A stretch of DNA of 32,169 nt from an uncultured Candidatus Saccharibacteria bacterium (GCA_964514225.1 CAZEPT010000002.1:1-32169), one strand, 5' to 3'; positions 1 to 14,438 are shown, counted from the stretch's first letter. A program made the numbers and translations. Notes: generated by a model not told the origin, from the letters alone.

Positions 1-227
1 TTTTTGAGTCCGAACTGTATGGGAGTAAATATGAAGTTAAAGAAAAGATTGAGCGCAAATGGCAAAGCGACCATCCAAGAAATTTTTCCTGTAAATGCTT
101 TGTAAAATACTGCGCCAAAAGAGATAGCAATGAGTACGTAGAGTACGGTCCATACTGGCCCGAACAACCATGAAGGTGGAGCCCATGATGGTTTAATAAG
201 AGATGAGTACCAGTTATATGTAGACAT
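1..227 (-). CDS. tspO: TspO/MBR family tryptophan-rich sensory protein (N-terminal ~75 aa; the rest runs off the window)
   Basis: Not in the ORF track. The reverse complement of 1-227 reads MSTYNWYSSLIKPSWAPPSWLFGPVWTVLYVLIAISFGAVFYKAFTGKISWMVALPFALNLFFNFIFTPIQFGLK, with the ATG at 225-227. W..L.KPSW.PP.W.FGPVWT.LY is the TspO signature. Confidence 0.8.
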   Translation of the reverse strand, partial: MSTYNWYSSLIKPSWAPPSWLFGPVWTVLYVLIAISFGAVFYKAFTGKISWMVALPFALNLFFNFIFTPIQFGLK

Positions 228-336: not shown

Positions 337-1359
337 ATGAATTTTGGAGAATTTCGCACATGGTTTGACGAACAGTTTTCGTTTTTATTGGAAAAAAAAA
401 TTAGAGATTTTATAGCCCACGGTAAAAATTCAGATATTACACCTATTGTTTCCTATATAACCTCCATTGCCAAAAATGGAAAACGATTTCGTCCTTTTTT
501 AGTTTATAGTGCGAGTAATCTCAACAAGAAAAACGCTAACGACCATTTTCTCTTATTTGCCAGTGTTGAGCTCCTTCATATTTTTGCTCTTATTCACGAT
601 GACATTATGGATGAAGCAGATATGAGGCACGGGGTTATTTGTGCACATAAAAAATTTACTGCTAAGTACGGAAAAACAACCAGTCAATCAATTGGAATCC
701 TTTTGGGCGATCTAGTATTCGCATGGGCATACGAATGCCTTTTTGAATACACTTCATTATTCCCTAATACTCATCATCGTATTACTCAAGAATTTACTCA
801 ACTCGTGAGTGAAGTTACTTATGGTCAAATACTCGACGTATTATCACCTTCACAAAAACCACTTGAAGAAAAAGCTATTCTTGAAAAAATGATTCTTAAA
901 ACTGCCCGATATTCTTTTGTCCGACCTCTTCTGTTGGGCTTTGTTCTTTCTGGTGATCAAACCACAGACCACGAGTTTGCGGAAAAATTCGGCCTAGCTC
1001 TTGGAATTGGATTTCAACTTCAAGATGATCTTCTTGACACCTTACCTACTGAAAAAACAGGAAAGTCTCAATTTTCTGACATCCAAAACAAAAACCAAAC
1101 TCTTCTGTCTCACTACCTATTTCAATCAAAACCAGAATATAGTAATAAACTCATGCTTTTTTGGGGAAAAACATTAGTTGATGAAAACGACAGACAATCA
1201 CTTACTCACATACTTGTAAACAGCGGGGCAATAGACTACATTAAAAAACTCACTACAGAGTATTTTAACAAAGCTCAAACCACAGTTACTGAGAGAGATG
1301 ACTCTGATCAACCTCGATGGAAATCTATCATCGAACTTATTGAAAACCGAAAAAAATAA
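337..1359 (+). CDS. crtE: trans-polyprenyl diphosphate synthase, probable geranylgeranyl diphosphate synthase
   Basis: 340-aa ORF. Has the first Asp-rich motif LIHDDIMDEADMRHG and the second FQLQDDLLD. It is the first gene of a tight synthase/desaturase run. Chain length is inferred, not shown. Confidence 0.85.
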   Translation: MNFGEFRTWFDEQFSFLLEKKIRDFIAHGKNSDITPIVSYITSIAKNGKRFRPFLVYSASNLNKKNANDHFLLFASVELLHIFALIHDDIMDEADMRHGVICAHKKFTAKYGKTTSQSIGILLGDLVFAWAYECLFEYTSLFPNTHHRITQEFTQLVSEVTYGQILDVLSPSQKPLEEKAILEKMILKTARYSFVRPLLLGFVLSGDQTTDHEFAEKFGLALGIGFQLQDDLLDTLPTEKTGKSQFSDIQNKNQTLLSHYLFQSKPEYSNKLMLFWGKTLVDENDRQSLTHILVNSGAIDYIKKLTTEYFNKAQTTVTERDDSDQPRWKSIIELIENRKK

Positions 1360-1360
1360 T

Positions 1361-2203
1361 ATGCTCACATTAGCTGAAATAGACCCGCGAATAATCATTA
1401 AAAAATACGGAACTGGGTACTACCGGGCGTCATTTCTCTTTCCAAAAGAAATAAGAGAAGCCACATGGAAATACTATCAGTTTGTTCGAATTGCGGATGA
1501 ACTTGTTGATGCAGACCAAGTTTATGATAAAAAAAATGAGCTCGACAAACTAAGAAACGAATGGAAAAAAACCCAATCTTCTGCAAGTACTTTTAATTTT
1601 CTTAATCAATACAAAGCTGTTGTAGACAAGTACAACATCCCCACAAGTTACACCGAGGTTTTTTTTAATTCAATGGAACAAGATTTATATGTCAGCACAT
1701 ACGAAACATACGCTGATTTAGAGAACTATATGCATGGATCTGCTGTTGTTGTTGGATATACGATGAGTCATCTTATTGGTTTCAAAGAGGGGGCTCTCGT
1801 TCACGCAAAAGCACTCGGAGAAGCATTCCAAATGACAAATTTTCTTCGTGACATACGAGAGGATTATGAAGACCGAGGCCGGATATATATTCCAAAAGAA
1901 GATATGGTGCGTTTTGGTGTGACTCCTGATCATATTGCAAACCACATCCAAGATGACGCATGGCGTGCCTTGATGAAGTTTGAGATAACCAGAACAAGAA
2001 AACTTTATGAGATCGGACTAGCTGGAATACCCATGCTGGATAAACACGGTAGACGAGCAGTGTATGCTGCAATGCTCATCTATAAAGAGATACTCAATAC
2101 AATCGAACTGCGTGATTACGATATTTTTTCTAAACGCATTACAGTTAGTCCAATCCGCAAAACGATGATACTATTGAAAGTACTATGGAGAATAAAACTG
2201 TAA
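1361..2203 (+). CDS. crtB: phytoene synthase (squalene/phytoene synthase family; a C30 CrtM-type is not excluded)
   Basis: ORF 1298-2203 trimmed to ATG 1361, one nt after the crtE stop (1357-1359). Motifs YYQFVRIADELVD and GEAFQMTNFLRDIREDYEDRGRIYIPKED. Confidence 0.85.
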   Translation: MLTLAEIDPRIIIKKYGTGYYRASFLFPKEIREATWKYYQFVRIADELVDADQVYDKKNELDKLRNEWKKTQSSASTFNFLNQYKAVVDKYNIPTSYTEVFFNSMEQDLYVSTYETYADLENYMHGSAVVVGYTMSHLIGFKEGALVHAKALGEAFQMTNFLRDIREDYEDRGRIYIPKEDMVRFGVTPDHIANHIQDDAWRALMKFEITRTRKLYEIGLAGIPMLDKHGRRAVYAAMLIYKEILNTIELRDYDIFSKRITVSPIRKTMILLKVLWRIKL

Positions 2204-3690
2204 CTATTATTGGTGCTGGGATTGGTGGCATGGCTCTTGCGTGCATGGTTGGGATAGCTGGATACAAAGTAACTGTTGTTGAAAAAAACGAAATGACTGG
2301 TGGTCGTGCGCGCATATTTTCAGACACGGGATTCACCTTCGATATGGGACCGAGCTGGTACATGATGCCTGATGTATTTGAACATTTTTTTGAAATCTTG
2401 GGTGAAGATATCACGCACTACTACACACTTGAAAGACTTTCACCTTCATACCAAATCACACTCAAAAGCGACGGTAAAAACTATACCTTTTATTCTGACA
2501 TGCAAAAAAATAAAGAATTATTCGAATCTATCGAGCCCGGTGCTGGTGCAGTACTTGAGGAATTCCTTATGCAAGGGAAAGAACAATATGAACTCTCAAA
2601 AGCAGAATTCATGTACAAAAACTATAATTCTATTCGAGACTTCATGACACTTCGTGTCATGCGCCAAGGGGCAAAGCTTCCACTGTTCAAAAAACAAAAA
2701 CAGATAATTGAGAAAAAATTTAAGAGTGAAATCCTTCGTAAAGCACTCCAATATCAGACTGTACTTTTAGGAACTGCTCCTGGAGATACCCCAGGTATTT
2801 ATACTCTTATGAATTATGTAGATTTAGTGCTTGGTGAATGGTACCCTAGCGGAGGTATTAGGTCTATTCCAGAAGCGCTAGAAACTATTGCAAAAAAATA
2901 CGGTGTGCAGATACTCTTGAACTCACCGGTCAAAAAAATCCTTATTACAGAAAATCACGCGACAGGAGTTCTTCTGCAAAACAACACGACTCTTCTCTCT
3001 GACCTTGTTGTTTCAAATGCAGATGTTGAACATACAGACAGAACATTACTCCCAAAAGAGTACCAAACAAAATCTAATGCATATTGGGAATCACGAGTAC
3101 TAGCTCCAAGTGCCTTCATTTTATACCTCGGAATACAAGGTAAAATTCCACAAATGCAACACCACAACCTTCTTTTTACAAAAAACTGGGAACATGGATT
3201 TTCTCAAATTTTTAAATCACCTGAATGGCCGGACGATCCATCTATGTACATTTGTATGCCCTCAAAAACTGACGAGAGTATTGCTCCAAGTGACCATGAA
3301 AATCTTTTTGTTCTTGTACCTATTGCATCAGGACTGACGTACGACGATGCATTTGTAGAAACGTATGGTGATAAAGTACTCAAAGAAATTGCACAGTACT
3401 ACAACATTCCAGACCTTCTGGAACGAGTTGTTGTTCGACACAGCTACAGTGTGAAAAACTTTATTAATGACTACAACGCTTTTAAAGGAACTGCACTTGG
3501 ACTAGCACACACACTTGGACAGACAGCAATTTTTCGACCAAACAATATTCACAAGAAAATAGATAATCTTTTTTATGTCGGAGCGGGAACGAATCCTGGT
3601 ATAGGTATGCCGATATGTCTTATTTCTGCTGAACTCGCATATAAACGTATCGAAAAAATTAAACACCCCTTCCCTCTCAAAAAAATCTAA
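2185..3690 (+). CDS. crtI: phytoene desaturase, CrtI family FAD-dependent oxidoreductase
   Basis: 501 aa. N-terminal Rossmann motif VTIIGAGIGGMALA and C-terminal FYVGAGTNPGIGMPICL typical of CrtI/CrtN/CrtD. Overlaps the crtB stop by 19 nt. Confidence 0.85.
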   Translation: MENKTVTIIGAGIGGMALACMVGIAGYKVTVVEKNEMTGGRARIFSDTGFTFDMGPSWYMMPDVFEHFFEILGEDITHYYTLERLSPSYQITLKSDGKNYTFYSDMQKNKELFESIEPGAGAVLEEFLMQGKEQYELSKAEFMYKNYNSIRDFMTLRVMRQGAKLPLFKKQKQIIEKKFKSEILRKALQYQTVLLGTAPGDTPGIYTLMNYVDLVLGEWYPSGGIRSIPEALETIAKKYGVQILLNSPVKKILITENHATGVLLQNNTTLLSDLVVSNADVEHTDRTLLPKEYQTKSNAYWESRVLAPSAFILYLGIQGKIPQMQHHNLLFTKNWEHGFSQIFKSPEWPDDPSMYICMPSKTDESIAPSDHENLFVLVPIASGLTYDDAFVETYGDKVLKEIAQYYNIPDLLERVVVRHSYSVKNFINDYNAFKGTALGLAHTLGQTAIFRPNNIHKKIDNLFYVGAGTNPGIGMPICLISAELAYKRIEKIKHPFPLKKI

Positions 3691-4571
3691 ATTACATTTT
3701 TTATAAAAAGTTCAATCGACACAAGTGCTCCGACGCTTGTATTAATAAGTGGGAAATATGTGTATATCTTAAAGAGCGCTGCATCTGAACGTGCTTGACT
3801 TGAACGCCACATAAAATAAGAAAATGTGATCAGACCTGCAATACTCGCGAATGGAATACTCTCAAACACTAAGTACGCAGCTAAAACATACAAAAACCAA
3901 CAAAAATAAATAGTTCGCTTTGCGCCAATAATAATGGCGATTGTTTTAAGTTTTGCCGCAATATCTGCTTGAATATCAGGAACAGCGCTGTATGCGTGCA
4001 TCGCGACTGCCCAAGAAACACCCGCGATCACTCCAATCACAGGGAAGCCAATTCCACCAGCAAGATAGTACCCAAACACACCTGTTGCAACATAGTGCCC
4101 CGCAGAAAAAAGTGAGTCGATAACCGGACGAGCTTTCGCACGTATTGGTGGTGCCGAGTAAAAGAATGCAAAAAAAAGGAAAATTATAAACGAAAGCATT
4201 GTTTCTCGGGCTGAGGGAACAAAAAACAAAAATGGTATATTAGTTAGCCCAATCCACACCCAGAGCATCCGGTTTTTCTCCGGGGTTACTAATTCTTCGT
4301 ACGTTCCCTTTTTTGGATTCAGTTTATCTGTTTCGTAATCAAACATATCGTTAACACCATAAATCAAAATATTTGCGGGAATGAGGAAATAAAATGCAAA
4401 TATCCAATAGTGCCATTGTGTAAAAAATGATAACCCTTGCATTGCACCAACTGCTCCAACGAGACCAAATGTTGCGGCTTCATACAACCAAAATCGAGGA
4501 CGTGAAATACGTAAAACTTCATATATGTTCATACGCTGTAGTATATCATCAAATATCAATTTACTTTTCAT
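3687..4571 (-). CDS. UbiA-family integral-membrane prenyltransferase (candidate lycopene-elongase-type enzyme)
   Basis: 294 aa and polytopic. Asp-rich motif NDMFDYETDKLNPKK after TM2. Convergent with crtI, with stop codons overlapping in CTAA at 3687-3690. Confidence 0.7.
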   Translation of the reverse strand: MKSKLIFDDILQRMNIYEVLRISRPRFWLYEAATFGLVGAVGAMQGLSFFTQWHYWIFAFYFLIPANILIYGVNDMFDYETDKLNPKKGTYEELVTPEKNRMLWVWIGLTNIPFLFFVPSARETMLSFIIFLFFAFFYSAPPIRAKARPVIDSLFSAGHYVATGVFGYYLAGGIGFPVIGVIAGVSWAVAMHAYSAVPDIQADIAAKLKTIAIIIGAKRTIYFCWFLYVLAAYLVFESIPFASIAGLITFSYFMWRSSQARSDAALFKIYTYFPLINTSVGALVSIELFIKNVI

Positions 4572-4667
4572 AAATTCACACTAAAAATTTCGGTACTCTT
4601 CACGCGCAAAGAGAGATCCTACACTCCTTAAGGTATCGTTAGATATTTTTGTTTTTAAGGAAAGGAC

Positions 4668-4676
4668 TGCTATAGT
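4668..4676 (+). promoter_or_regulatory. Extended -10 promoter TGcTATAGT, 6 nt upstream of the ATG
   Basis: tgctatagt at 4668-4676, spacer aaatac, ATG at 4683. Confidence 0.45.
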
Positions 4677-4682
4677 AAATAC

Positions 4683-5246
4683 ATGGAATCAATCGAAATA
4701 TTTTTTGGAAATTATAAAATACCCCTTACAGTGCTTCATGTTCTTTCAGTAGTATGTGGCATGGGTGCAGCACTCGTATCAGATTTTTTATTTAATTTCT
4801 ATACTAAAGATAAAGAACTTTCAAAAACTGAAATCTCCACATTATCAACTTTATCAAAAGTAGTACTCATTACTCTTCCTTTAATTATGCTTACTGGAGC
4901 TGGAATTTTTTTAAGTAATACAGATAAATACCTACACTCAGCTAAGTTTCTAGTTAAAATGACACTTATGGCTATCCTCCTTATAAATGGATTTATCTTA
5001 GATAAGTACATTTGGTCCCATTTACTCAATAAAAAATTTTTTACATCTCCAAACGAAAAAAAGTTTAGGATGCTCTCGTTTATATGTGGATCAACCTCAA
5101 TTATTACTTGGCTCTTTATTTGTACCCTAGGGGTGCTCGACAGTGTAACACTTTCTTATTGGCAACTTTTTGGAATTTATTCAGTGCTTCTTTTGGGATC
5201 GTTTCCAATCGCTCTCGCACTTGAATTTAAAGAATTTGGAAAATAA
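4683..5246 (+). CDS. hypothetical integral membrane protein (about 5 TM), no recognisable motif
   Basis: 187-aa ORF with five hydrophobic segments. Divergent from the UbiA gene and has its own -10 box. Confidence 0.6.
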   Translation: MESIEIFFGNYKIPLTVLHVLSVVCGMGAALVSDFLFNFYTKDKELSKTEISTLSTLSKVVLITLPLIMLTGAGIFLSNTDKYLHSAKFLVKMTLMAILLINGFILDKYIWSHLLNKKFFTSPNEKKFRMLSFICGSTSIITWLFICTLGVLDSVTLSYWQLFGIYSVLLLGSFPIALALEFKEFGK

Positions 5247-5257
5247 CACACTCCGTA

Positions 5258-6487
5258 TTATTTTTTGATAAAATTCTTATCTCGCTTGAGCTTGTGAAAG
5301 GTTATTGCAAAACGGTGCGACTCACTATTGGCGAGTAAAATTTCTTTCTTATACTCTTTAGTAAGTATCTTGTCTCCTAAAATATCTTTTGGCTTGTGTT
5401 GTTCATCTTTCAAAACTGAAACGACAGGAATCTTCAGCTGGTAGAACTTGAGAACCTGTTCAGTAACGTTAATTTGAGCGATACCTCCATCGACAACAAC
5501 TAACTCTGGTAAACCCCATTCTATGTGCCTAAAACGCCGCATGAGGACCTCATGAAGGGCTCCAGTGTCATTTGCACCAGTCTGAGACCTGATGATGAAT
5601 TTCTTATATTCGGTCTTATCAACTTCCCTGTTTTGAATGACGGTCATAACCCCAACCATCTCTTTTCCGCCCAAATGAGCAATATCATAGGATTCTATCC
5701 GAAAACTCTTATCGTCAATTCTTGATCCAAAAAAGTCAGATTTAATCACAGCAATATCATTGATATGTTCAAGTGCGAAAATCTGTTTTTTAATAAGATT
5801 GGCTTCTTCAAACTTCAATGCCTTGGCTTTAGCTTGCATGTCTTTCTTTAAATCACTGATGATTTTCTTTTTCTTACCTTGGAAAAAGAGCACGATATGC
5901 TTGATGTTTTCTTTGTACTTGTTGAGCGCTTCAGTGTTGGTCGTATCGGGTGTCAGTCCAAGTTGTTTATAAAATTCGTATGTGTCTTTCTGAATAGCTT
6001 TTCGATCGATATACGGAAAAATACGCCTGATGATCCGGAGTCCTTCTAAGATAGCACTCCCACTCGTAAATGGACCGAAGGCATACTTTGGTTTGAGTGT
6101 CGAAAGTTCTTTTTCAATTTTCAGATTCCGTCCACGAATGAGCTCAATGCGTGGGATGGGGTCATTTGTGATAATGACGTAATTAAAACTCTTATCGTCT
6201 TTTTCTTTTGTGTTGTACTTCGGCTTATACCGCTTGATAAGCTCAGCTTCTAAAAGAAGGGCCTCAAGTGCAGTGTCAGTCACTTCAAAATCAATACTCG
6301 TTGCAAGCGCAACCATATCAGCCACAGAGACACTCCGAGTTTCAATCAGATCTTTGACAAAGTAGCTCCGGGTACGATCACGGAGCGATGTCGCTTTCCC
6401 AATATACAAAATATCCCCTCCTTTCTTAAACAGATACACCCCTGGCTTATCAGGAAGTGCTCTTTCTTTCAGGTGTTGACTATTCAT
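5258..6487 (-). CDS. uvrC: excinuclease ABC subunit C, short form lacking the C-terminal HhH2 domain
   Basis: GIY-YIG motif (GVYLFKKGGDILYIGKATSLRDRTRSYF), UVR coiled coil (KALKFEEANLIKKQIFALEHI) and C-terminal endonuclease core (YDIAHLGG ... VVVDGG ... HRFAITFH). Start moved to ATG 6487 because the upstream ATG 6496 lies inside the -10 box. Confidence 0.9.
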   Translation of the reverse strand: MNSQHLKERALPDKPGVYLFKKGGDILYIGKATSLRDRTRSYFVKDLIETRSVSVADMVALATSIDFEVTDTALEALLLEAELIKRYKPKYNTKEKDDKSFNYVIITNDPIPRIELIRGRNLKIEKELSTLKPKYAFGPFTSGSAILEGLRIIRRIFPYIDRKAIQKDTYEFYKQLGLTPDTTNTEALNKYKENIKHIVLFFQGKKKKIISDLKKDMQAKAKALKFEEANLIKKQIFALEHINDIAVIKSDFFGSRIDDKSFRIESYDIAHLGGKEMVGVMTVIQNREVDKTEYKKFIIRSQTGANDTGALHEVLMRRFRHIEWGLPELVVVDGGIAQINVTEQVLKFYQLKIPVVSVLKDEQHKPKDILGDKILTKEYKKEILLANSESHRFAITFHKLKRDKNFIKK

Positions 6488-6494
6488 TGGATGC

Positions 6495-6503
6495 ATTATA
6501 TCA
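6495..6503 (-). promoter_or_regulatory. Extended -10 promoter TGaTATAAT for uvrC
   Basis: The minus strand reads TGATATAAT-gcatcca-ATG(6487). Confidence 0.5.
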
Positions 6504-6528
6504 TGAGTTCAAACAAAACTTAACAATT

Positions 6529-7026
6529 ATGAATATAATTTCTATTATTCAAGAAATCACCGTACAAGCGCTCATTGCCGTATTGATTTGTATCCCGCTT
6601 TTTATAGCATCAGCTATAACGGTCATCTACATAGACTCACTTGCTAATTGTTGGAGATATCTAAAACGAGACCAAAACAAGAACAAGGATGTGGAGATAC
6701 CACCTGAACCAAATATAGTATACGACCCTTTCCGCGGAGAAATGACACCAGTACTTTCCCTGAAACAGATACCAGCCATATTTTATGCTGGGACATTTAT
6801 TTTACAACTGTTTCCAATTGTGAATACGTTTATGCTGATTCACTCGGTTCTGCCTTTTTTTGAAATCCTCAAAAACATACGCAGGAATCCGCATTTAACA
6901 ATGCGTAGTGCTCAATATTATCTCAAAAAAAACCCTGAGGTACAGTCGAAGTTGTATCACAGTGTGATTTTACAATTTATCCTCAAGTATGGATTCGCAG
7001 CGCGATTTCGTCTTCTTTTTCTTTAA
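6529..7026 (+). CDS. hypothetical membrane protein
   Basis: ORF 6457-7026 trimmed to ATG 6529, since the upstream part overlaps the uvrC start and promoter. Has an N-terminal TM and a second hydrophobic block. Followed by a terminator. Confidence 0.6.
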   Translation: MNIISIIQEITVQALIAVLICIPLFIASAITVIYIDSLANCWRYLKRDQNKNKDVEIPPEPNIVYDPFRGEMTPVLSLKQIPAIFYAGTFILQLFPIVNTFMLIHSVLPFFEILKNIRRNPHLTMRSAQYYLKKNPEVQSKLYHSVILQFILKYGFAARFRLLFL

Positions 7027-7035
7027 AACCTTTTT

Positions 7036-7075
7036 ATGTCCTAGAACTGACTTATCAGAGCTAGGACATTTTTTA
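7036..7075 (+). terminator. Rho-independent terminator
   Basis: atgtcctag (7036-7044) pairs with ctaggacat (7061-7069). Inner ctga/tcag stem, then a T-run. Confidence 0.7.
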
Positions 7076-7129
7076 TTGACTTATTTTCTTATTTATTATA
7101 CTGTGTAGTTAAATCAAAAAAATTACATC

Positions 7130-7483
7130 ATGAGTACTATCTTAGTTTTATTTTTGGCCATTATTCCCCTTGCGGTGAATAATATTTATTTAAAAAAAGA
7201 AGTTAGCTTCTACAGTCAGGATAAGTTCGAAAGAGCATTCTGGCTCTACACCCCTTTTTTTGCAATACTTGCTACTATAGCTTGTATCTGTATTAAAATT
7301 GATAATCTTAATAAAATTATCAAAGAAATCAAAAAAGGTGCCCACACACAAAGCGATGTCATGCTTTATCGTATCTTCAAGAAAAATGATTATTCACCAA
7401 AAAAAATACGTAACAGTATTTTCCTCCGCTTTCTCTACCGCCTTTTAGGTGGAAACTATCACAATCTCCCTTTTTCACACTAA
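7130..7483 (+). CDS. hypothetical small membrane protein (2 TM), weak paralog of 6529-7026
   Basis: 117-aa ORF. Its C-terminal basic segment aligns with that of the preceding gene. Has its own terminator. Confidence 0.55.
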   Translation: MSTILVLFLAIIPLAVNNIYLKKEVSFYSQDKFERAFWLYTPFFAILATIACICIKIDNLNKIIKEIKKGAHTQSDVMLYRIFKKNDYSPKKIRNSIFLRFLYRLLGGNYHNLPFSH

Positions 7484-7500
7484 GGGAAAATCATATATCA

Positions 7501-7531
7501 AAAAATCCCAGTTAACCCCTGGGATTTTTTA
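7501..7531 (+). terminator. Rho-independent terminator
   Basis: aaaaatcccag (7501-7511) pairs with ctgggattttt (7519-7529), followed by a T-run. Confidence 0.7.
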
Positions 7532-7584
7532 TTTATCTATTACAGAGGCACTAAAAGCGACAGCTTTATTTATTTTAAAAATAA

Positions 7585-7592
7585 TGTATAAT
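7585..7592 (+). promoter_or_regulatory. -10 box TGTATAAT for prs
   Basis: tgtataat lies 24 nt upstream of ATG 7617 and downstream of the 7501 terminator. Confidence 0.45.
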
Positions 7593-7616
7593 AAGGCCAA
7601 ACAAAACTTAAAAACA

Positions 7617-8627
7617 ATGAAGAAAATTGCCCTTATTTCAGGTAGCACACACCTTGCGCTCGCTCAAAAAATTAGCTTTGACCTAAATGTAAGACTTACA
7701 GAAGTTTCAATTGAAAAATTCTCCTGTGATGAAATAAACGTTGAAATCAAAGAAACTGTACGCGGTGCCGAAGTTTTTATTATTCAAAGCTCCCTCACAG
7801 GACATGGTAATGATAATTTTGTAGAAGCAATGCTTATAATAGATGCCGCTAAACGAGCTGGTGCGTCTAAGGTTTATTTAGTACAGACCATATTTCCTTA
7901 CCAAAGACAGGACCGCAGAGAGACAAACCGTAGAAATAGACCTAAACGTAAAGCTATTTCTGGTAGAGTTATGGCTGATTGTTTCGCTAGAGCCGTCTTC
8001 GTGGATGGAATAATCAGTATTAAACTCCACAGTGATCAAATCGAGGGGTTCTTTGATAACCGAACTCTTATTGAGAACATTGACCCGACAAGTCTGTTTA
8101 TAGAATATCTAAAATCAGAGAATATTATTCGAAGTGAATACGGTGATTCGAAACCTCCAACTGTAGTTGCTCCAGATATTGGTTCAGCAAAGACAGCGGA
8201 TAGTTTCTCAGAAGCACTTGGTCTTAATGATTACGTCATTGTGAACAAAAGAAGAACTAAAAGTAATGAATCTGAGGTTCTTCATGTTATTGGCGATTAT
8301 AGCGGTAGAATTTGTATTATTTATGACGATATGATTGATACCGGTGGAACAGTCGTGAACAGCCAAAAAAAGCTACAAGAATTAAAAGAGGCAGGAGCAA
8401 CTGATGTTTACCTCATGGCACCCCATGGAATATTTTCTAAAAACGCTATCGAAAGGTTATCAAATTCTGATTTTAAAAAAATTGTCATTACAGATTCGAT
8501 ACCTAACCCTCAAGTAGAAAATAATGAAAAATTCGTAATTTTATCATTAGCCCCACTGCTGAAAAGTGTTATCAAAAATATTCATGACGCAGAGTCCCTG
8601 CAACCAGTAGTAGCAAATAAATCGTAA
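7617..8627 (+). CDS. prs: ribose-phosphate pyrophosphokinase (PRPP synthase)
   Basis: ORF 7449-8627 trimmed to MKKIALISGS (ATG 7617), because the extension crosses a terminator. Motifs FSCDEINVEI, YQRQDRR, HSDQIEGFF and the PRPP loop IIYDDMIDTGGT. Confidence 0.9.
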   Translation: MKKIALISGSTHLALAQKISFDLNVRLTEVSIEKFSCDEINVEIKETVRGAEVFIIQSSLTGHGNDNFVEAMLIIDAAKRAGASKVYLVQTIFPYQRQDRRETNRRNRPKRKAISGRVMADCFARAVFVDGIISIKLHSDQIEGFFDNRTLIENIDPTSLFIEYLKSENIIRSEYGDSKPPTVVAPDIGSAKTADSFSEALGLNDYVIVNKRRTKSNESEVLHVIGDYSGRICIIYDDMIDTGGTVVNSQKKLQELKEAGATDVYLMAPHGIFSKNAIERLSNSDFKKIVITDSIPNPQVENNEKFVILSLAPLLKSVIKNIHDAESLQPVVANKS

Positions 8628-8650
8628 TTATATAAAAACATAATTACCAC

Positions 8651-8688
8651 AAAAGCCTTATAGATTATTCTGTAAGGTTTTTATTTTT
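8651..8688. terminator. Possible bidirectional terminator between convergent prs and uvrA
   Basis: aaaagcctta (8651-8660) pairs with taaggttttt (8673-8682), including one G-U. T-runs on both strands. AU-rich, weak stem. Confidence 0.4.
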
Positions 8689-11299
8689 TCCGCAGAACTT
8701 TTTTGAGATACTGTCCTGTATAGGAATTTTTATTATTCGCTACTTCTTCAGGTGTTCCTTTAGCAACCAGTTGTCCGCCACCGACTCCACCTTCTGGACC
8801 AATATCCAAGAGATAATCGGCACATTTGATGATATCCATGCTGTGTTCGATCAGCACGACTGAATTACCCTTATTAACGAGCATGTTGAGGACATCTAAG
8901 AGCTTTGCAACGTCGTCATAGTGCAGTCCGACAGTTGGCTCATCGAGTAAGTAAATAGTTTTTTCTACATGAGGCCGGTACAGCTCTGAAGATATTTTTA
9001 CGCGCTGCGCTTCTCCACCGGAGAGCGTCGTAGCAGATTGACCAAGCTTGAGGTAGCCGAGACCTACATCGCTTAGGGTCTTGATACGGTCATGGATTGC
9101 TGGAATATCTTCAAAAAATGTCAGTGCTTCTTCGACGGTCATCTGGAGCACATCGTAGATATTCTTCTTTTTGTATTTGACGGTAAGTGTTTCTTTATCA
9201 AAACGCTTTCCACCACACACATCGCACGTCACATAAACAGTCGGTAAAAAGTGCATCTCAACGGCAATCTCACCATTTCCTTCACAAGCTTCACATCGTC
9301 CACCTTTGACGTTGAATGAGAATCTATTTGATTTCCAACCACGGAGACGTGCTTCTTCAGTCGAGGCAAACATATCGCGTATATGAGTAAATGAGCCCGT
9401 ATATGTCGCGACGTTTGATCGAGGAGTACGTCCGATCGGAGACTGATCAATCAAGATCGCTCGTGTCAGGTATTCAGTTCCAGTAAATGAGGCACAGTTA
9501 AATACTTTTGCTGTTCGGTACTTTCTTTCAAGTCGTGCTTGAAGGTTCTTATGGACGATCTCATACATAAATGATGACTTCCCTGACCCTGACACGCCTG
9601 TGATACATACCAATTTTCCAAGAGGAATTTCAGCCTGCATATTTTTTATATTAAACACATTTCCATTAACGATCTTAAGAGATCCTTTATCGTTAGTTCG
9701 TCTCTTTTCAGGAACTGGAATAGAAATTTCATTTCGCAAATAGCCGAGCGTTCGAGAACCACTCGTATTTTTCTTAGCTGAGAGGAGTTCAGAAAGCCAG
9801 CCTTCTGCTACAACATTCCCACCATGGATACCAGCTTTAGGTCCGATATCAACAATATAGTCTGATGAGTAGATCGTATCTTCATCGTGCTCAACAACCA
9901 AGATAGTGTTGCCGAGGTCACGTAAGTCAGTCAGTGTATTGATAAGCCGTTCGTTATCCCTCTGATGGAGTCCAATTGTTGGTTCGTCTAAGACATAGAG
10001 TGCGCCAACAAGTCGTGAGCCGAGTTGTGAGGCAAGTCTGATACGCTGAGCTTCTCCGCCTGAGAGCGTATTAGCTCGTCTATCGAGTGAGAGGTATTCT
10101 AGTCCCACGTTTAGCATGAATTGTATTCGGTCAGTGATTTCTCGAAGGACCGGAAGAGAAATCTCTTTTTCTTTCGGACCCATTTTCAAACTGGTAATAA
10201 AGTCTTTAGATTCTTTAATCGTCATACTCGTAAAGTCCACAATATTTTTTCCGGTCTTGAGATCACCTCCGAGCATCACATGGAGCGCTTCTCTCCTGAG
10301 TCGTTTACCTCCACACGCCTCGCATTCGTCGAGGGCAGCAAAGTATTTCGTTCCGAGACCGTTACATTCTGGACACGCTCCGTAGGGCGAATTAAATGAG
10401 AAGAGTCTGGGTTCAACTTCAGGGAAAGAAAATCCATCATTTTTACAGGCAAATTTAGCTGAGAGAACGAATTCTTCCCCTGTTTCAAAATGGATTGTAA
10501 CAAGTCCGTCAGACTCAACAAGCGCTCGTTCAACAGCTTCGGCGAGCCGCATCCGACTCGCGTCTTTGTCATCTTTAAATTCATGAAGTGCCAGTGTATC
10601 AACAACGACATCGATTTCATGTTTTTTATTTTTTGACAGGTCGATTCGGTCACGAAGGCTTTTGACAGCACCATCGATGCGCACCTCAGTGAATCCTTTA
10701 TTCAATAGGTCATAGAGCATCTGATAGTGTTCCCCTTTTCGTCCACGAAGAATCGGCGAAAGCACAGACACTTTTGTCTCATTCCATTTAACCCCCATAA
10801 GTTCTTTTTTGGTTCCGCTATTTTTTTTGAGATACGCTTGAACTTTTTCCAAGACGAATGAAATAATCTCTTCGTTAGAAAGTTTTTTAATTTCTTCACC
10901 ACATTCTGGGCAGTGTGGATGTCCAACACGAGCATAGAGCACACGCAGGTAGTCATAAATCTCAGTAATCGTCGCAACGGTCGAACGAGGGTTGTTAGAA
11001 CGGGACTTTTGATCGATTGAGATAGCAGGTGAAAGACCGGTAATCTCATCGACATCAGGCTTCGGCATCTGATTGAGGAATTGGCGAGCATAGGCTGAAA
11101 GAGACTCCACATAGCGGCGTTGTCCTTCAGCAAAAATAGTATCAAAAGCAAGCGACGACTTCCCTGAGCCTGACATACCAGTAATAACCGTCATAGTATT
11201 ACGCGGTATTTCAACACTGATATTTTTTAGATTGTGTGTACGTGCTCCTTTGACAACAATTGCATCAATGGGCCTTACTGGTTTCTTGTGATCTGCCAT
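8681..11299 (-). CDS. uvrA: excinuclease ABC subunit A
   Basis: Two ABC ATPase modules ([18 protein letters not shown], two LSGGE signatures) and Zn modules ([36 protein letters not shown]). The ORF track starts at 11311, but that ATG lies inside the -10 box, so I prefer ATG 11299 (MADHKK). Confidence 0.93.
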
Positions 11300-11309
11300 A
11301 TATGGGTGC

Positions 11310-11318
11310 ATTATAGCA
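11310..11318 (-). promoter_or_regulatory. Extended -10 promoter TGcTATAAT for uvrA
   Basis: The minus strand reads TGCTATAAT-gcacccatat-ATG(11299). It directly abuts the upstream terminator. Confidence 0.5.
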
Positions 11319-11319
11319 C

Positions 11320-11361
11320 AAAAAAAATCACAATTTCCCTGAGGAAATTGTGATTTTTTTT
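11320..11361 (-). terminator. Rho-independent terminator of the DUF3298 gene
   Basis: Perfect 19-bp palindrome, aaaaaaaatcacaatttcc (11320-11338) with ggaaattgtgatttttttt (11343-11361). The A/T runs are part of the arms. Confidence 0.8.
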
Positions 11362-11383
11362 GTGAGAGTAGAGCGATAAAATA

Positions 11384-12259
11384 CTACTGTACTTTTTCTT
11401 CTACGGGTTCTTCCACTGGGCCATAAAAAGCTGGACGATGACTAATCGTAACCTGTTGTCTTCCGTAGGCATATGGAACAACTTGGTATTCGCCGAAATA
11501 GAATATTACTTCAGTCGGTGTAAAAGTATACACTTTAAAATTATCAGTCTCCGGCTCTGTTCCATCGTAAATCATTTGAGCGAGGTTTGCGTCTTCATCA
11601 TTTTTAAATACAAGCTTGTCGAAAGATTCCTTGTATGTAACTTTAGGCAGGAGTTTTTCAAGAAGTTTTTTTCGACTTTCAGCAGAAATGAATCCAATCT
11701 GATCTACTTGTCCTTTGAATATATCTCGCAAATACACCATCTTCTTATTTTTGACATCATAATTGAGTGAAAAGACATTTTCATAACCATGCGCTCCACC
11801 TTGATACCCACTGTATGTAAATAAAACACTTACAAAATCTTCATTCGCTTGAATAACGGTATAGTCAGCGAACAGTGGATACTTGTCTTCCGTGGTAATT
11901 GGAGTACTTGGACCTCCCGTCTCAATACGAGCTTTGAAATTTTCTTCTGATAGAGCAGTATGATCTTTTATAATCCGCTCATACGTGTTTCGAATGCGAT
12001 CATTTTCTAAAGTTGGAATATTTCTGAATTGTGGGTACTTTACATTAAGAGTGGTATATGTATCTTCTTTTTGTATATGTTTAGTCTCGATAAGACTCTC
12101 ATCAACAAGACCACCTTCAGATTGCGGGACTTCTACTTGAATATGTTCTTGAGCTTTTTCTTCTCTTTTTATTGGTTTGTAAATCTTAAAAAAATAATAA
12201 GCCAAGGCCGCACAAACAACGATAACAAGAAAAATAGCGTAGATATTCTTTGCTTTCAT
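11384..12259 (-). CDS. membrane-anchored DUF4163/DUF3298 (RsiV/PdaC-like) domain protein
   Basis: 291 aa with an N-terminal TM. LNVKYPQF and YSGYQGGAHGYENVFSLNYD resemble the DUF4163/DUF3298 motifs (GGAHG). Confidence 0.7.
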   Translation of the reverse strand: MKAKNIYAIFLVIVVCAALAYYFFKIYKPIKREEKAQEHIQVEVPQSEGGLVDESLIETKHIQKEDTYTTLNVKYPQFRNIPTLENDRIRNTYERIIKDHTALSEENFKARIETGGPSTPITTEDKYPLFADYTVIQANEDFVSVLFTYSGYQGGAHGYENVFSLNYDVKNKKMVYLRDIFKGQVDQIGFISAESRKKLLEKLLPKVTYKESFDKLVFKNDEDANLAQMIYDGTEPETDNFKVYTFTPTEVIFYFGEYQVVPYAYGRQQVTISHRPAFYGPVEEPVEEKVQ

Positions 12260-12270
12260 ATATACCTTAA

Positions 12271-12279
12271 ATTATATCA
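12271..12279 (-). promoter_or_regulatory. Extended -10 promoter TGaTATAAT
   Basis: The minus strand reads TGATATAAT-ttaaggtatat-ATG(12259). Confidence 0.5.
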
Positions 12280-12303
12280 TGCAGGCAAAATAAATATACA
12301 AAG

Positions 12304-14340
12304 CTATTCACCTTTCTTTACATGTGCACCAAGTTTCCCTTTCAAAATAATAATCTCATCTCGTAAAATCGCTGCGGTTTCAAAGTCGAGTTCTTTGACT
12401 GCATCATTCATTTCTTTTTCCTTTAATTTAATGAGCTTTTTGGGGTCTTTCTTAAACACAGCACTATCAATCGCAATGTTCATGTAGACTGCTTTTTGGT
12501 GATCGCTCTCAAGTTCTTCAGTAATATCTTTAATTTTTTTTATAATCGTCTGGGGAGTAATACCGTGCGCTTTGTTATATGCGAGCTGTTTTTCTCGACG
12601 TCGGTTGGTCTCGCCGATAGCTCGTTCCATTGAACCCGTTTCGCGGTCAGCATATAAAATAACGCGCCCTTTCACATTTCGAGCAGCCCGACCGATTGTT
12701 TGAATGAGCGATGTTTCTGATCTCAAAAATCCTTCCTTGTCAGCATCGAGAATTCCAATGAGCTCAACTTCAGGCAGGTCGAGTCCTTCACGAAGGAGAT
12801 TCACTCCGACCAAGCAGTCAAATTCCCCTTTACGAAAATTTGTCAAAATTTTTATTCGATCAATTGTTTTGATATCACTATGGAGATACTCGGCTTTGAT
12901 TTTCTTACCACTCTCTTCTTTTTGCTCTTTAAGATATGAAGAAAGATCTTCAGCCATTTTTTTAGTCAACGTTGTCGCAAGGACTCGTCCTCCCCCAGAA
13001 ATCGTCTTAATCGCCTCAGCAATAAAATCCTGGATCTGTCCTGGGTACTTCCCTTGCTCCATGACCGGCTTGATGTCTATTTGCGGATCAATCAATCCAG
13101 TCGGACGAATGATTTGTTCAACAATCTTATCGGATTGTGTTCGCTCAAACTCACCTGGAGTCGCTGAAACATAGACGACTTGTCCTATCCGCTCTTCAAA
13201 TTCATTATATTTAAGTGGTCGGTTATCTTTAGCACTCGGCAATCTGAATCCGAATTCAACTAAGGTATTTTTTCTGGAAGCATCACCAGCATGCATGCCG
13301 TGGAGTTGAGGCAACGTCACGTGAGATTCATCGATGATCGTCAAAAAATCCGGACTGCCGTCTTTGTTGTGAGGAAAATACGAAATAAGTGTATCAGGCG
13401 GTTCGCCTTCTTTTTTACCAGAGAGGTGCCGGGAATAGTTTTCGATACCGGAACAGTAGCCGACTTCTTTAATCATTGCCGTATCGTATGTCGTCCGGCG
13501 TTTGATGCGGTCAGCTTCTAAGAGCTTACCTTCTTTCTCAAATTTTTTGAGTTGAGTGGCAAGCTCAGCACGGATGGATTTAACGGCGCGGTCTCGGTCA
13601 CTTTTAGCTGTCATGAAGTGCTTAGCTGGAAACACGAAAAAATCTTTCAGTTCAGAAATGATTTGAGATGTGACGGTATTGTATTTAATAATTTTACTCA
13701 CCGTGCTTCCTGAAAATTCAATCTGATAGCCATCTGTTTCAGAGACTGGCATAATATCAAGCCTGGTACCGAGGGAGCGGAATGTCGCAGGAGTGAGGTC
13801 TGCATTAGTCCGTTCATACTGCATCTCAATCAATTGCTTCATGAGGTCAGTCTTGAGAACTTTCTGCCCGATACTAATCCTAAAATTTTTATTTTCATAT
13901 TCTACAGGAGATCCCAAACCATAAATACATGAGACAGACGCGACAATGATCACATCAGGCCGGGTCAAGAGTGCTTGGGTTGTTGCATGGCGAAGCCGGT
14001 CTATCTCTTCATTAATAGTGGCGTCTTTTTCGATAAAGGTATCAGTTACCGGCATGTACGCTTCAGGCTGGTAGTAGTCATAGTATGAGACAAAATAGTG
14101 GACTGCTGCATCAGGGAAAAACTCTCGGAATTCCTGAGCGAGCTGAGCAGCGAGGGTTTTATTATGAGCGATGATGAGTGTCGCCTTCCCCCACTCTTGA
14201 ATGACGTTTGCCATCGTAAAGGTCTTTCCTGTACCGGTCGCACCCAAAAGAGTCTGTTTGACCAAACCTTTATCTAAGCCCTTTAAAAGCCCAACAATAG
14301 CCTCAGGTTGGTCACCAGAGGGAGCCCAGTCGCTTTTCAT
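12304..14340 (-). CDS. uvrB: excinuclease ABC subunit B
   Basis: ORF 12304-14427 trimmed to MKSDWAPSGDQPEAI (ATG 14340), because the extension covers a terminator hairpin. Walker A GATGTGKT, helicase motifs DESH and GRAARN, C-terminal UVR motif DFETAAILRDEI. Confidence 0.93.
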   Translation of the reverse strand: MKSDWAPSGDQPEAIVGLLKGLDKGLVKQTLLGATGTGKTFTMANVIQEWGKATLIIAHNKTLAAQLAQEFREFFPDAAVHYFVSYYDYYQPEAYMPVTDTFIEKDATINEEIDRLRHATTQALLTRPDVIIVASVSCIYGLGSPVEYENKNFRISIGQKVLKTDLMKQLIEMQYERTNADLTPATFRSLGTRLDIMPVSETDGYQIEFSGSTVSKIIKYNTVTSQIISELKDFFVFPAKHFMTAKSDRDRAVKSIRAELATQLKKFEKEGKLLEADRIKRRTTYDTAMIKEVGYCSGIENYSRHLSGKKEGEPPDTLISYFPHNKDGSPDFLTIIDESHVTLPQLHGMHAGDASRKNTLVEFGFRLPSAKDNRPLKYNEFEERIGQVVYVSATPGEFERTQSDKIVEQIIRPTGLIDPQIDIKPVMEQGKYPGQIQDFIAEAIKTISGGGRVLATTLTKKMAEDLSSYLKEQKEESGKKIKAEYLHSDIKTIDRIKILTNFRKGEFDCLVGVNLLREGLDLPEVELIGILDADKEGFLRSETSLIQTIGRAARNVKGRVILYADRETGSMERAIGETNRRREKQLAYNKAHGITPQTIIKKIKDITEELESDHQKAVYMNIAIDSAVFKKDPKKLIKLKEKEMNDAVKELDFETAAILRDEIIILKGKLGAHVKKGE

Positions 14341-14391
14341 ATTGAATGGAGTAGTCTTTTTCACATATATAGTGTACGTGAAAATGGGAAA

Positions 14392-14419
14392 TAAAAAAAG
14401 CAGTCCGTTCGGACTGCTT
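14392..14419 (-). terminator. Rho-independent terminator of the two-gene cassette
   Basis: aagcagtcc (14398-14406) pairs with ggactgctt (14411-14419), loop gttc. T-run on the minus strand. Confidence 0.75.
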
Positions 14420-14438
14420 AAAAGCAACTTGTGTATTA

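Follow-up and report, generated by a model that had tools for sequence, protein, structure and literature searches.

What does a UbiA-family prenyltransferase do when its gene runs into the end of a carotenoid desaturase gene? The question is raised by a 32,169-nucleotide stretch of DNA (GCA_964514225.1 CAZEPT010000002.1:1-32169), which we call the window. It is contig C2 of a 586 kb (0.59 Mb) genome that consists of 47 contigs and is 91% complete. Judged by its named homologues, the host belongs to the Patescibacteria and is of the Paceibacteria/Parcubacteria type. The original prediction described two genes here. One was a UbiA-family gene convergent with the desaturase gene crtI, thought to encode a carotenoid elongase rather than an enzyme of quinone, heme or chlorophyll synthesis. 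The other encoded a membrane protein with five transmembrane helices, thought to be either a tailoring partner of the CruF or CrtYe/f kind or simply unrelated. Both open reading frames (ORFs) are present as described, at 3687-4571 on the minus strand (294 residues) and at 4683-5246 on the plus strand (187 residues). The explanation that best accounts for the evidence taken jointly, to which we give a probability of roughly 0.8, is that the UbiA-family gene (lye) encodes a lycopene elongase/1,2-hydratase of the LyeJ type within a conserved four-gene cassette. Relatives were drawn from 151 evenly sampled genomes of the order and from 12 genomes of the family. L numbers denote loci in relatives and G numbers denote genomes, G000 being the window's own.

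Identity of the UbiA-family protein

The genome has a single UbiA-family gene, the ORF that converges on crtI. The product of this ORF scores 66.9 bits with the Pfam UbiA model (cut-off 34.2) and 227.9 bits with the NCBIfam model NF009516 (PRK12875; cut-off 205). The latter is titled just 'prenyltransferase', and its meaning became clear from the scores of named proteins of haloarchaea, Arthrobacter, Rubrobacter and flavobacteria. Haloarchaeal genes flanked by crtI and by an annotated cruF (Halocatena, Halarchaeum and Halorarius) gave 397-454 bits, Rubrobacter 302 and Chloracidobacterium 253. The window protein follows with 228 bits, ahead of Jejuia pallidilutea and Gillisia limnaea with 218. 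The E-value with this LyeJ model is 1e-67, versus 1e-9 to 1e-3 with the NCBIfam models for homogentisate phytyltransferase, DGGGP synthase and ChlG. With NF009608, the model of the actinobacterial elongases, the protein scores 153.8 bits, below the cut-off of 217; an Arthrobacter protein reaches 466. A profile search of the Protein Data Bank (PDB) returned members of the UbiA superfamily only as remote matches.

The residues that are invariant in the family alignment, among them those of NDxxDxxxD..N..K and PDIxxD, are all kept. The segments NDMFDYETD and PDIQAD of the protein fall in these invariant columns. The Asp-rich motif that had been read earlier, NDMFDYETDKLNPKK, is indeed found in the protein. 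The R..RP segment, which had been noted as absent, occurs as NDYADRKFDGHVKRTANRP in E. coli UbiA and is missing from the window protein and from all elongase relatives that we examined.

Homologues of the protein are numerous (2,254 in a large protein database). A scan of one genome per species found 595 relatives, the best 80 of which come from Patescibacteria, Pyrinomonadaceae/Chloracidobacterium, Abditibacteriaceae, Flavobacteriaceae, Friedmanniella, Rubrobacter and Halobacteriales. A tblastn search of 72,556 plasmids gave four records only, three haloarchaeal and one from Arthrobacter. The two haloarchaeal plasmid loci that we inspected are crtI-lye-cruF clusters.

A maximum-likelihood tree of 90 proteins was calculated with E. 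coli UbiA, MenA and CyoE as the outgroup, using a quick search without bootstraps, so that its deep branches are uncertain. The window protein lies apart from the three E. coli enzymes, which sit on saturated branches, and groups with the haloarchaeal, Rubrobacter, Arthrobacter and flavobacterial elongases. It belongs to a 16-row clade of Patescibacteria with a support of 96 in the Shimodaira-Hasegawa-like approximate likelihood ratio test (SH-aLRT). This clade is sister (SH-aLRT 94) to a Flavobacteriaceae clade that contains Jejuia and Gillisia. Within the Patescibacteria the elongase family is patchy and polyphyletic. CrtEb, ChlG and DGGGP synthase were outside the tree and were compared through NCBIfam and PDB profile scores. 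The model scores, the tree and the linkage to crt genes described below thus all speak for the elongase assignment made in the original prediction.

The length of 294 residues holds for the maximal ORF and probably does not hold for the protein. Homologues are mostly 281-283 residues long and cover 95-96% of the 294-residue query, and an extended -10-like box, TGATATACT (4540-4548, minus strand; a consensus match only), lies 7 nt before the ATG of Met14. For these two reasons the true start is probably at 4532, not at 4571, which gives a lye gene at 3687-4532 on the minus strand and a protein of 281 residues. A second box of this kind, TGCTATAGT (4668-4676, plus strand), stands 6 nt before the ATG of the five-helix gene; it fits, as a consensus match only, the leaderless-type promoter that had been proposed for that gene. 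Both divergent genes therefore have a TGnTATAnT box 6-7 nt before the ATG, without a Shine-Dalgarno sequence at the usual distance. This arrangement suggests leaderless transcripts for the two genes.

Conservation of the carotenoid cassette

The stop codons of crtI and lye overlap. The crtI stop TAA occupies 3688-3690, and the lye stop, TAG on the minus strand, appears as CTA at 3687-3689. The 4 nt overlap, CTAA at 3687-3690, had been pointed out before and can be read directly from the sequence. The elongase is present in six of the 151 order genomes and absent from 145. CrtI-family genes are found in 13 of the 151, and the six closest to that of the window (50-58% identity) occur in exactly the six elongase genomes, each adjacent and convergent to the elongase gene. 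In all five other elongase-positive order genomes the order crtE>crtB>crtI><lye is kept between unrelated flanks. The stops overlap by 4 nt in L015 and L016 and by 12 nt in L018, and the genes abut directly in L014 and L017. A chance juxtaposition can be dismissed because five further order genomes share the convergent arrangement, with gene ends that abut or overlap. The UbiA gene is therefore tied to crtI, as had been argued from the overlap, and wherever the elongase occurs in the order sample, crtI adjoins it.

Among 80 named loci that we compared, crtI lies within the locus in 70. In the ten named loci of the window's clade, crtI is beside lye in every case, and in eight it converges on lye at a distance of up to 300 nt from the lye stop; cruF is present in none. 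Halobacteria carry crtI>lye>cruF on one strand (7/8 loci). Other bacteria mostly have the order cruF< lye> <crtI, with cruF in 36 of 47 loci, and in Flavobacteriaceae cruF is found in 2 of 15. A search for terminators found none between crtI and lye, and the two terminator-like hairpins that it gave within the lye gene match chance expectation (1.5).

The first gene of the cassette is a crtE-like trans-polyprenyl synthase gene (337-1359, plus strand; Pfam polyprenyl_synt, 158 bits), a putative geranylgeranyl diphosphate (GGPP) synthase. Its best NCBIfam matches are GGPP synthases, all under the cut-off. It is followed by the phytoene synthase gene crtB (1361-2203, plus strand; Pfam SQS_PSY, 214.5 bits). 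The maximal crtB ORF starts at 1298; Met22 at 1361 gives a protein of 280 residues, the same length as called in L008. The desaturase gene crtI is at 2185-3690 on the plus strand. Self-contained as it is, the cassette is probably also horizontally mobile. Within the window's own genus, G152 carries a different elongase (C20:2014-2826) that is only 38% identical and has its own polyprenyl synthase gene nearby, and G151 has no elongase. These observations suggest that carotenoid cassettes were repeatedly and independently gained or replaced. In G068, an undecaprenyl-diphosphatase (BacA/UppP) gene at L018:9089-9892 (minus strand) runs in the direction of lye and shares 4 nt with the start of lye, so that a polyprenyl-diphosphate phosphatase would be co-transcribed with the elongase in that lineage.

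Desaturase and predicted product

No CrtI-family gene other than the crtI of the window occurs in the genome (a single PF01593 match). The crtI product is 43.5% identical to the elongase-adjacent CrtI of Halarchaeum versus about 29% to the CrtI of Pantoea. NF058655 ('CrtID, bifunctional phytoene desaturase/3,4-desaturase') is the best model for all of the elongase-adjacent desaturases tested and places the window protein in an elongase-linked 'CrtID' subfamily. The scores, to be read against a cut-off of 640 bits, are 750 for haloarchaea, 659 for Rubrobacter, 649 for the clade-mate G086, 620 for Chloracidobacterium, 595 for the window protein and 578 for Jejuia and Gillisia. A bifunctional CrtI/CrtD activity of C0507 and D1086 of Haloarcula japonica was shown genetically (PMC11946383). 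The single crtI must desaturate phytoene, because the cassette would otherwise be without lycopene; that it also carries out the 3,4-desaturation is a prediction.

In the proposed pathway, CrtE would provide GGPP, two molecules of which would be condensed by CrtB to phytoene, and the single CrtI-family enzyme would convert phytoene to lycopene. Lye is predicted to add a C5 dimethylallyl unit from dimethylallyl diphosphate (DMAPP) at C-2 of the psi-end, with the cation at C-1 being quenched by water, so that C-1 is hydrated. The same desaturase would then introduce the 3,4-double bond. Both ends would be open to elongation if there is no cyclase, and the added C5 units would stay unhydrated if there is no CruF.

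CruF (PF04240) was not found in the window's genome (91% complete), nor in the five other elongase-positive order genomes (99-100% complete). Neither a CrtY-type or CrtYc/d-type cyclase nor a CrtYe/f-type C50 cyclase domain (PF18916) was found in the window's genome. Because neither cruF nor a lycopene cyclase was found, the product is predicted to be an acyclic and unhydrated C50 diol of the bisanhydrobacterioruberin type, or C45 isopentenyldehydrorhodopin if one end reacts, and not bacterioruberin. The sister clade offers a calibration. Jejuia pallidilutea makes 2'-isopentenylsaproxanthin and Gillisia limnaea makes 3''-hydroxy-2'-isopentenylsaproxanthin (PMC4256183; reference list of PMC10784355). 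The Jejuia locus has lye and crtI without cruF, and the Gillisia locus has cruF. The 3''-hydroxyl thus goes with cruF and its absence goes with the lack of cruF, which leads to the prediction of an unhydrated product here. Both the length of the pigment, C50 or C45, and its photoprotective or membrane role are inferred.

The sole CruF match among the 151 order genomes is at G112:C44:29945-30604; in this genome, which is 87% complete, no elongase or CrtI was detected. A link to rhodopsins, in which the carotenoid would serve as retinal source or antenna, found no support: bacteriorhodopsin and heliorhodopsin were not matched in the window's genome, a weak negative since control genomes were unmatched too.

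Several points weigh against this interpretation. The elongases of Patescibacteria are known from sequence alone, and their function is predicted. The score of the window CrtI with the CrtID model, 595 bits, is under the cut-off of 640. A gene for CruF or for a cyclase may lie on DNA that is missing from the 91% complete genome, although the 99-100% complete clade-mates are also without cruF. The chain length made by CrtE and CrtB (C40 versus C30) is not fixed by their sequences, whose specific NCBIfam matches are all under the cut-off. No route to isopentenyl diphosphate (IPP) or DMAPP was found, and in the living cell the cassette may be inactive.

Comparison with known elongase systems

The haloarchaeal LyeJ/Lye proteins (Haloarcula japonica c0506, Halobacterium salinarum Lye) are bifunctional lycopene elongases and 1,2-hydratases of the bacterioruberin pathway. 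The window protein shares with them the same NCBIfam model over its cut-off, the invariant motifs, a CrtID-type desaturase partner and the same predicted chemistry (C5 at C-2 and hydroxyl at C-1). It differs from them in sequence (32-37% identity) and in the convergent crtI><lye arrangement, whereas the haloarchaeal genes are co-directional (crtI>lye>cruF). Its host is a member of the Patescibacteria with a genome of 0.59 Mb, and bacterioruberin is not the expected product because this genome has no cruF.

The flavobacterial elongases of Jejuia and Gillisia are alike in forming the sister clade, in the convergent lye><crtI layout, in the frequent absence of cruF and in similar scores with the LyeJ and CrtID models. 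Flavobacteria have a separate crtI-crtB-crtY-crtZ cluster by which the other end is cyclised, and their products are monocyclic C45 carotenoids (PMC4256183). In contrast, the window cassette has its own crtE and crtB, one desaturase and no cyclase. The lyeJ, crtD and cruF genes were reported in Patescibacteria of Lake Baikal and are polyphyletic (Haro-Moreno et al. 2023, PMC9948471). The phylum-level host, the enzyme family and the polyphyly are the same as here. Unlike the compact and operon-like four-gene cassette without cruF described here, the Baikal genes are unclustered and include cruF and the full bacterioruberin set (PMC9948471). CrtEb of Corynebacterium glutamicum, which acts in the flavuxanthin/decaprenoxanthin pathway, and the actinobacterial elongases also perform C5 elongation of lycopene with a UbiA-superfamily enzyme. 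The window protein, however, falls under the cut-off of their model NF009608, and the genome has no CrtYe/f domain. Neither the enzyme family nor the CrtID partner nor the CruF step is new. What is specific here is a clade of Patescibacteria without cruF that carries a compact crtE-crtB-crtI><lye cassette.

The five-helix neighbor

The gene at 4683-5246 (plus strand) encodes a membrane protein of 187 residues. Its AlphaFold2 model has a mean confidence score (pLDDT) of 91 and shows five long helices and a short N-terminal helix. The five helices that had been described are thus confirmed, and no likeness to a known fold or to CruF came with them. A Foldseek comparison of the model with the PDB gave nothing significant (best E-value 0.4), and a profile search of PDB sequences gave no match. 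The protein has no Pfam family over threshold, with DUF2214 at 22.2 bits versus 34.1; its homologues show sub-threshold matches to CopD (27.8 versus 32.1 bits), DUF4149 (20.2) and DUF2269 (21.6). An hhalign comparison of the five-helix alignment with a 10-sequence CruF alignment returned a probability of 1.7%.

There are 44 homologues in a large protein database. The protein occurs in 41 of the 151 order genomes, 38 of which lack the elongase (6 of 151 in total), and in 10 of the 12 family genomes (elongase, 3). It is present in three of the six elongase-positive order genomes, and only in the window's own does it adjoin the elongase; in G059 and G068 the gene is placed on a different contig or separated from the elongase by 41 kb. 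The same-genus genome G151 encodes it at 71% identity and has no elongase. The arrangement of the window is repeated in L008. In L010 the gene (71% identity) stands beside uvrC-uvrA-uvrB without crt genes, and in L012 and L013 its context is unrelated. At the closest elongase loci, L022 and L023, a photolyase gene takes its position.

Phyletic pattern, synteny and profile comparison all speak against a role of this protein as tailoring partner, whether CruF-like or new, and we reject it. The idea of a CruF- or CrtYe/f-like partner in the original prediction is not supported, and the co-occurrence with crt genes that had been set beforehand as a check failed, including in a same-genus genome. 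The alternative that it had offered, an unrelated protein, is supported by the spread of the gene in the absence of crt genes. The five-helix protein is a vertically inherited core membrane protein of the lineage and not a carotenoid enzyme; the cassette came to lie beside it by happenstance.

Domain fusions give a hint of its role. In Patescibacteria the five-helix domain is fused to an N-terminal VKOR domain in proteins of 335-358 residues, encoded at L105:1337-2362, L106:111-1157 and L107:1151-2158 (all minus strand). Two further fusions are encoded on the plus strand. One, at L109:1586-3712, has a cupredoxin-like motif and a YNCE-type beta-propeller (708 residues), and the other, at L110:1433-3748, has two Cyt-b5 domains and a cytochrome-d1-type propeller (771 residues). 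Because of these fusions, the role of the protein is probably related to redox or metal chemistry. A VKOR domain fused to the five-helix domain in organisms without quinones may point to another route for electrons or metals.

Alternative explanations

We weighed four other explanations of the locus. The elongase may act on one end only or on another backbone, such as a C30 diapocarotenoid, and would then yield a C45 or a C35/C40 product instead of C50. The nearest characterised products, those of the flavobacterial sister clade, are C45 (PMC4256183), and CrtB and CrtE have no chain-length assignment above any NCBIfam cut-off. However, the flavobacterial C45 arises since the other end is cyclised and no cyclase was found here; moreover, the characterised acyclic systems (haloarchaea, Arthrobacter and Rubrobacter) elongate both ends, and the best matches of CrtE are GGPP synthases. 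We consider this alternative unlikely. That the five-helix protein is a new tailoring enzyme, a non-homologous replacement of CruF or of a cyclase that works with the elongase, is very improbable. Its divergent position upstream of lye is that of cruF in many bacterial clusters, the genome has no cruF, and the gene has no assigned function. Yet most genomes that carry the protein, G151 among them, do so without the elongase (10/12 versus 3/12 in the family), L010 has it beside uvrC without crt genes, and photolyase replaces it in L022 and L023. The CruF profile comparison and the fusions to VKOR, cupredoxin and Cyt-b5 domains also contradict a CruF-like function.

There is hardly any room for the view that the UbiA protein is a housekeeping prenyltransferase of quinone, heme, chlorophyll or lipid synthesis which merely abuts the crt operon. 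The automatic name given to many homologues by the Joint Genome Institute (JGI) is '4-hydroxybenzoate polyprenyltransferase', and the gene is the sole UbiA-family gene in the genome. Against these two facts stand the E-values of the other NCBIfam families (1e-9 to 1e-3 versus 1e-67), the remoteness of the PDB matches, the saturated branches of the E. coli enzymes, and the absence of the gene from 145 of the 151 order genomes together with its inheritance alongside crtI. Mis-binning of the cassette, or contamination with DNA from another phylum such as Flavobacteriia or Acidobacteriota, is just as improbable. The patchy and polyphyletic occurrence of the family in Patescibacteria and its position as sister to the flavobacterial clade would fit such an origin, but the 32-kb contig that bears the cassette also holds uvrC/A/B and further genes in synteny with relatives. 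A 470-kb contig (L008) carries this cassette between the same flanks, the cassette is also present on the single-contig 0.98-Mb genome G086, and the GC content is even along the window. We thus retain the LyeJ-type elongase/1,2-hydratase in its four-gene cassette.

Flanking genes and precursor supply

At the left end of the window is the 5' part of a TspO/MBR (CrtK-like) gene (3-227, minus strand; Pfam TspO_MBR, 63.5 bits), which is truncated at the edge of the contig and points away from crtE. The tspO<>crtE layout also occurs in L008 and is not conserved in more distant cassettes. To the right, a short uvrC gene (5258-6496, minus strand) is next after the five-helix gene, and uvrC, uvrA and uvrB lie within 5258-14427. 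In the closest named relatives, L022 and L023, a DNA photolyase gene (both 4611-5984, minus strand) is divergent beside lye and is followed by uvrC; L023 also has an EndoIII-like gene (3691-4332, minus strand). The cassette with the uvr genes, and with photolyase in relatives, looks like a light/UV-damage island.

IspG, IspH, HMG-CoA reductase, GHMP kinases and UppS were not found in the window's genome (91% complete), nor was any polyprenyl synthase other than that of the cassette. IspG, GHMP kinases and UppS were also not found in same-genus genomes that are 97-100% complete. Carotenoid synthesis and cell-wall synthesis (through undecaprenyl phosphate) both require isoprenoids, and the lineage (G000 and its relatives G151-G162) apparently lacks an isoprenoid metabolism of its own. 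In a set of 21 relatives, trans-polyprenyl synthases were found only in three elongase-positive genomes, each beside the elongase. Because these synthases are confined in this way, the cassette would bring its own GGPP synthase into a lineage without other detectable isoprenoid metabolism. Our tentative picture, which we regard as possible but doubtful, is of a presumably host-dependent, ultra-small bacterium with a mobile and self-sufficient C5-to-C50 cassette. If active, the cassette would be fed by C5 or longer prenyl diphosphates, or by precursors, imported from a partner, and would yield an unhydrated C50 pigment beside the uvrC/A/B 'light-damage island'.

Implications

The analysis takes the five-helix neighbor off the list of candidate carotenoid enzymes. 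It gives a predicted function to a gene that is usually named 'prenyltransferase' or '4-hydroxybenzoate polyprenyltransferase' in hundreds of assemblies of Patescibacteria. The compact cassette could be expressed directly in laboratory E. coli for the production of C50 carotenoids of the bisanhydrobacterioruberin type. The finding also raises the question of where genome-reduced episymbionts obtain their isoprenoid precursors. If the tentative picture above is true, this would be a pigment pathway that runs on scavenged isoprenoid units.

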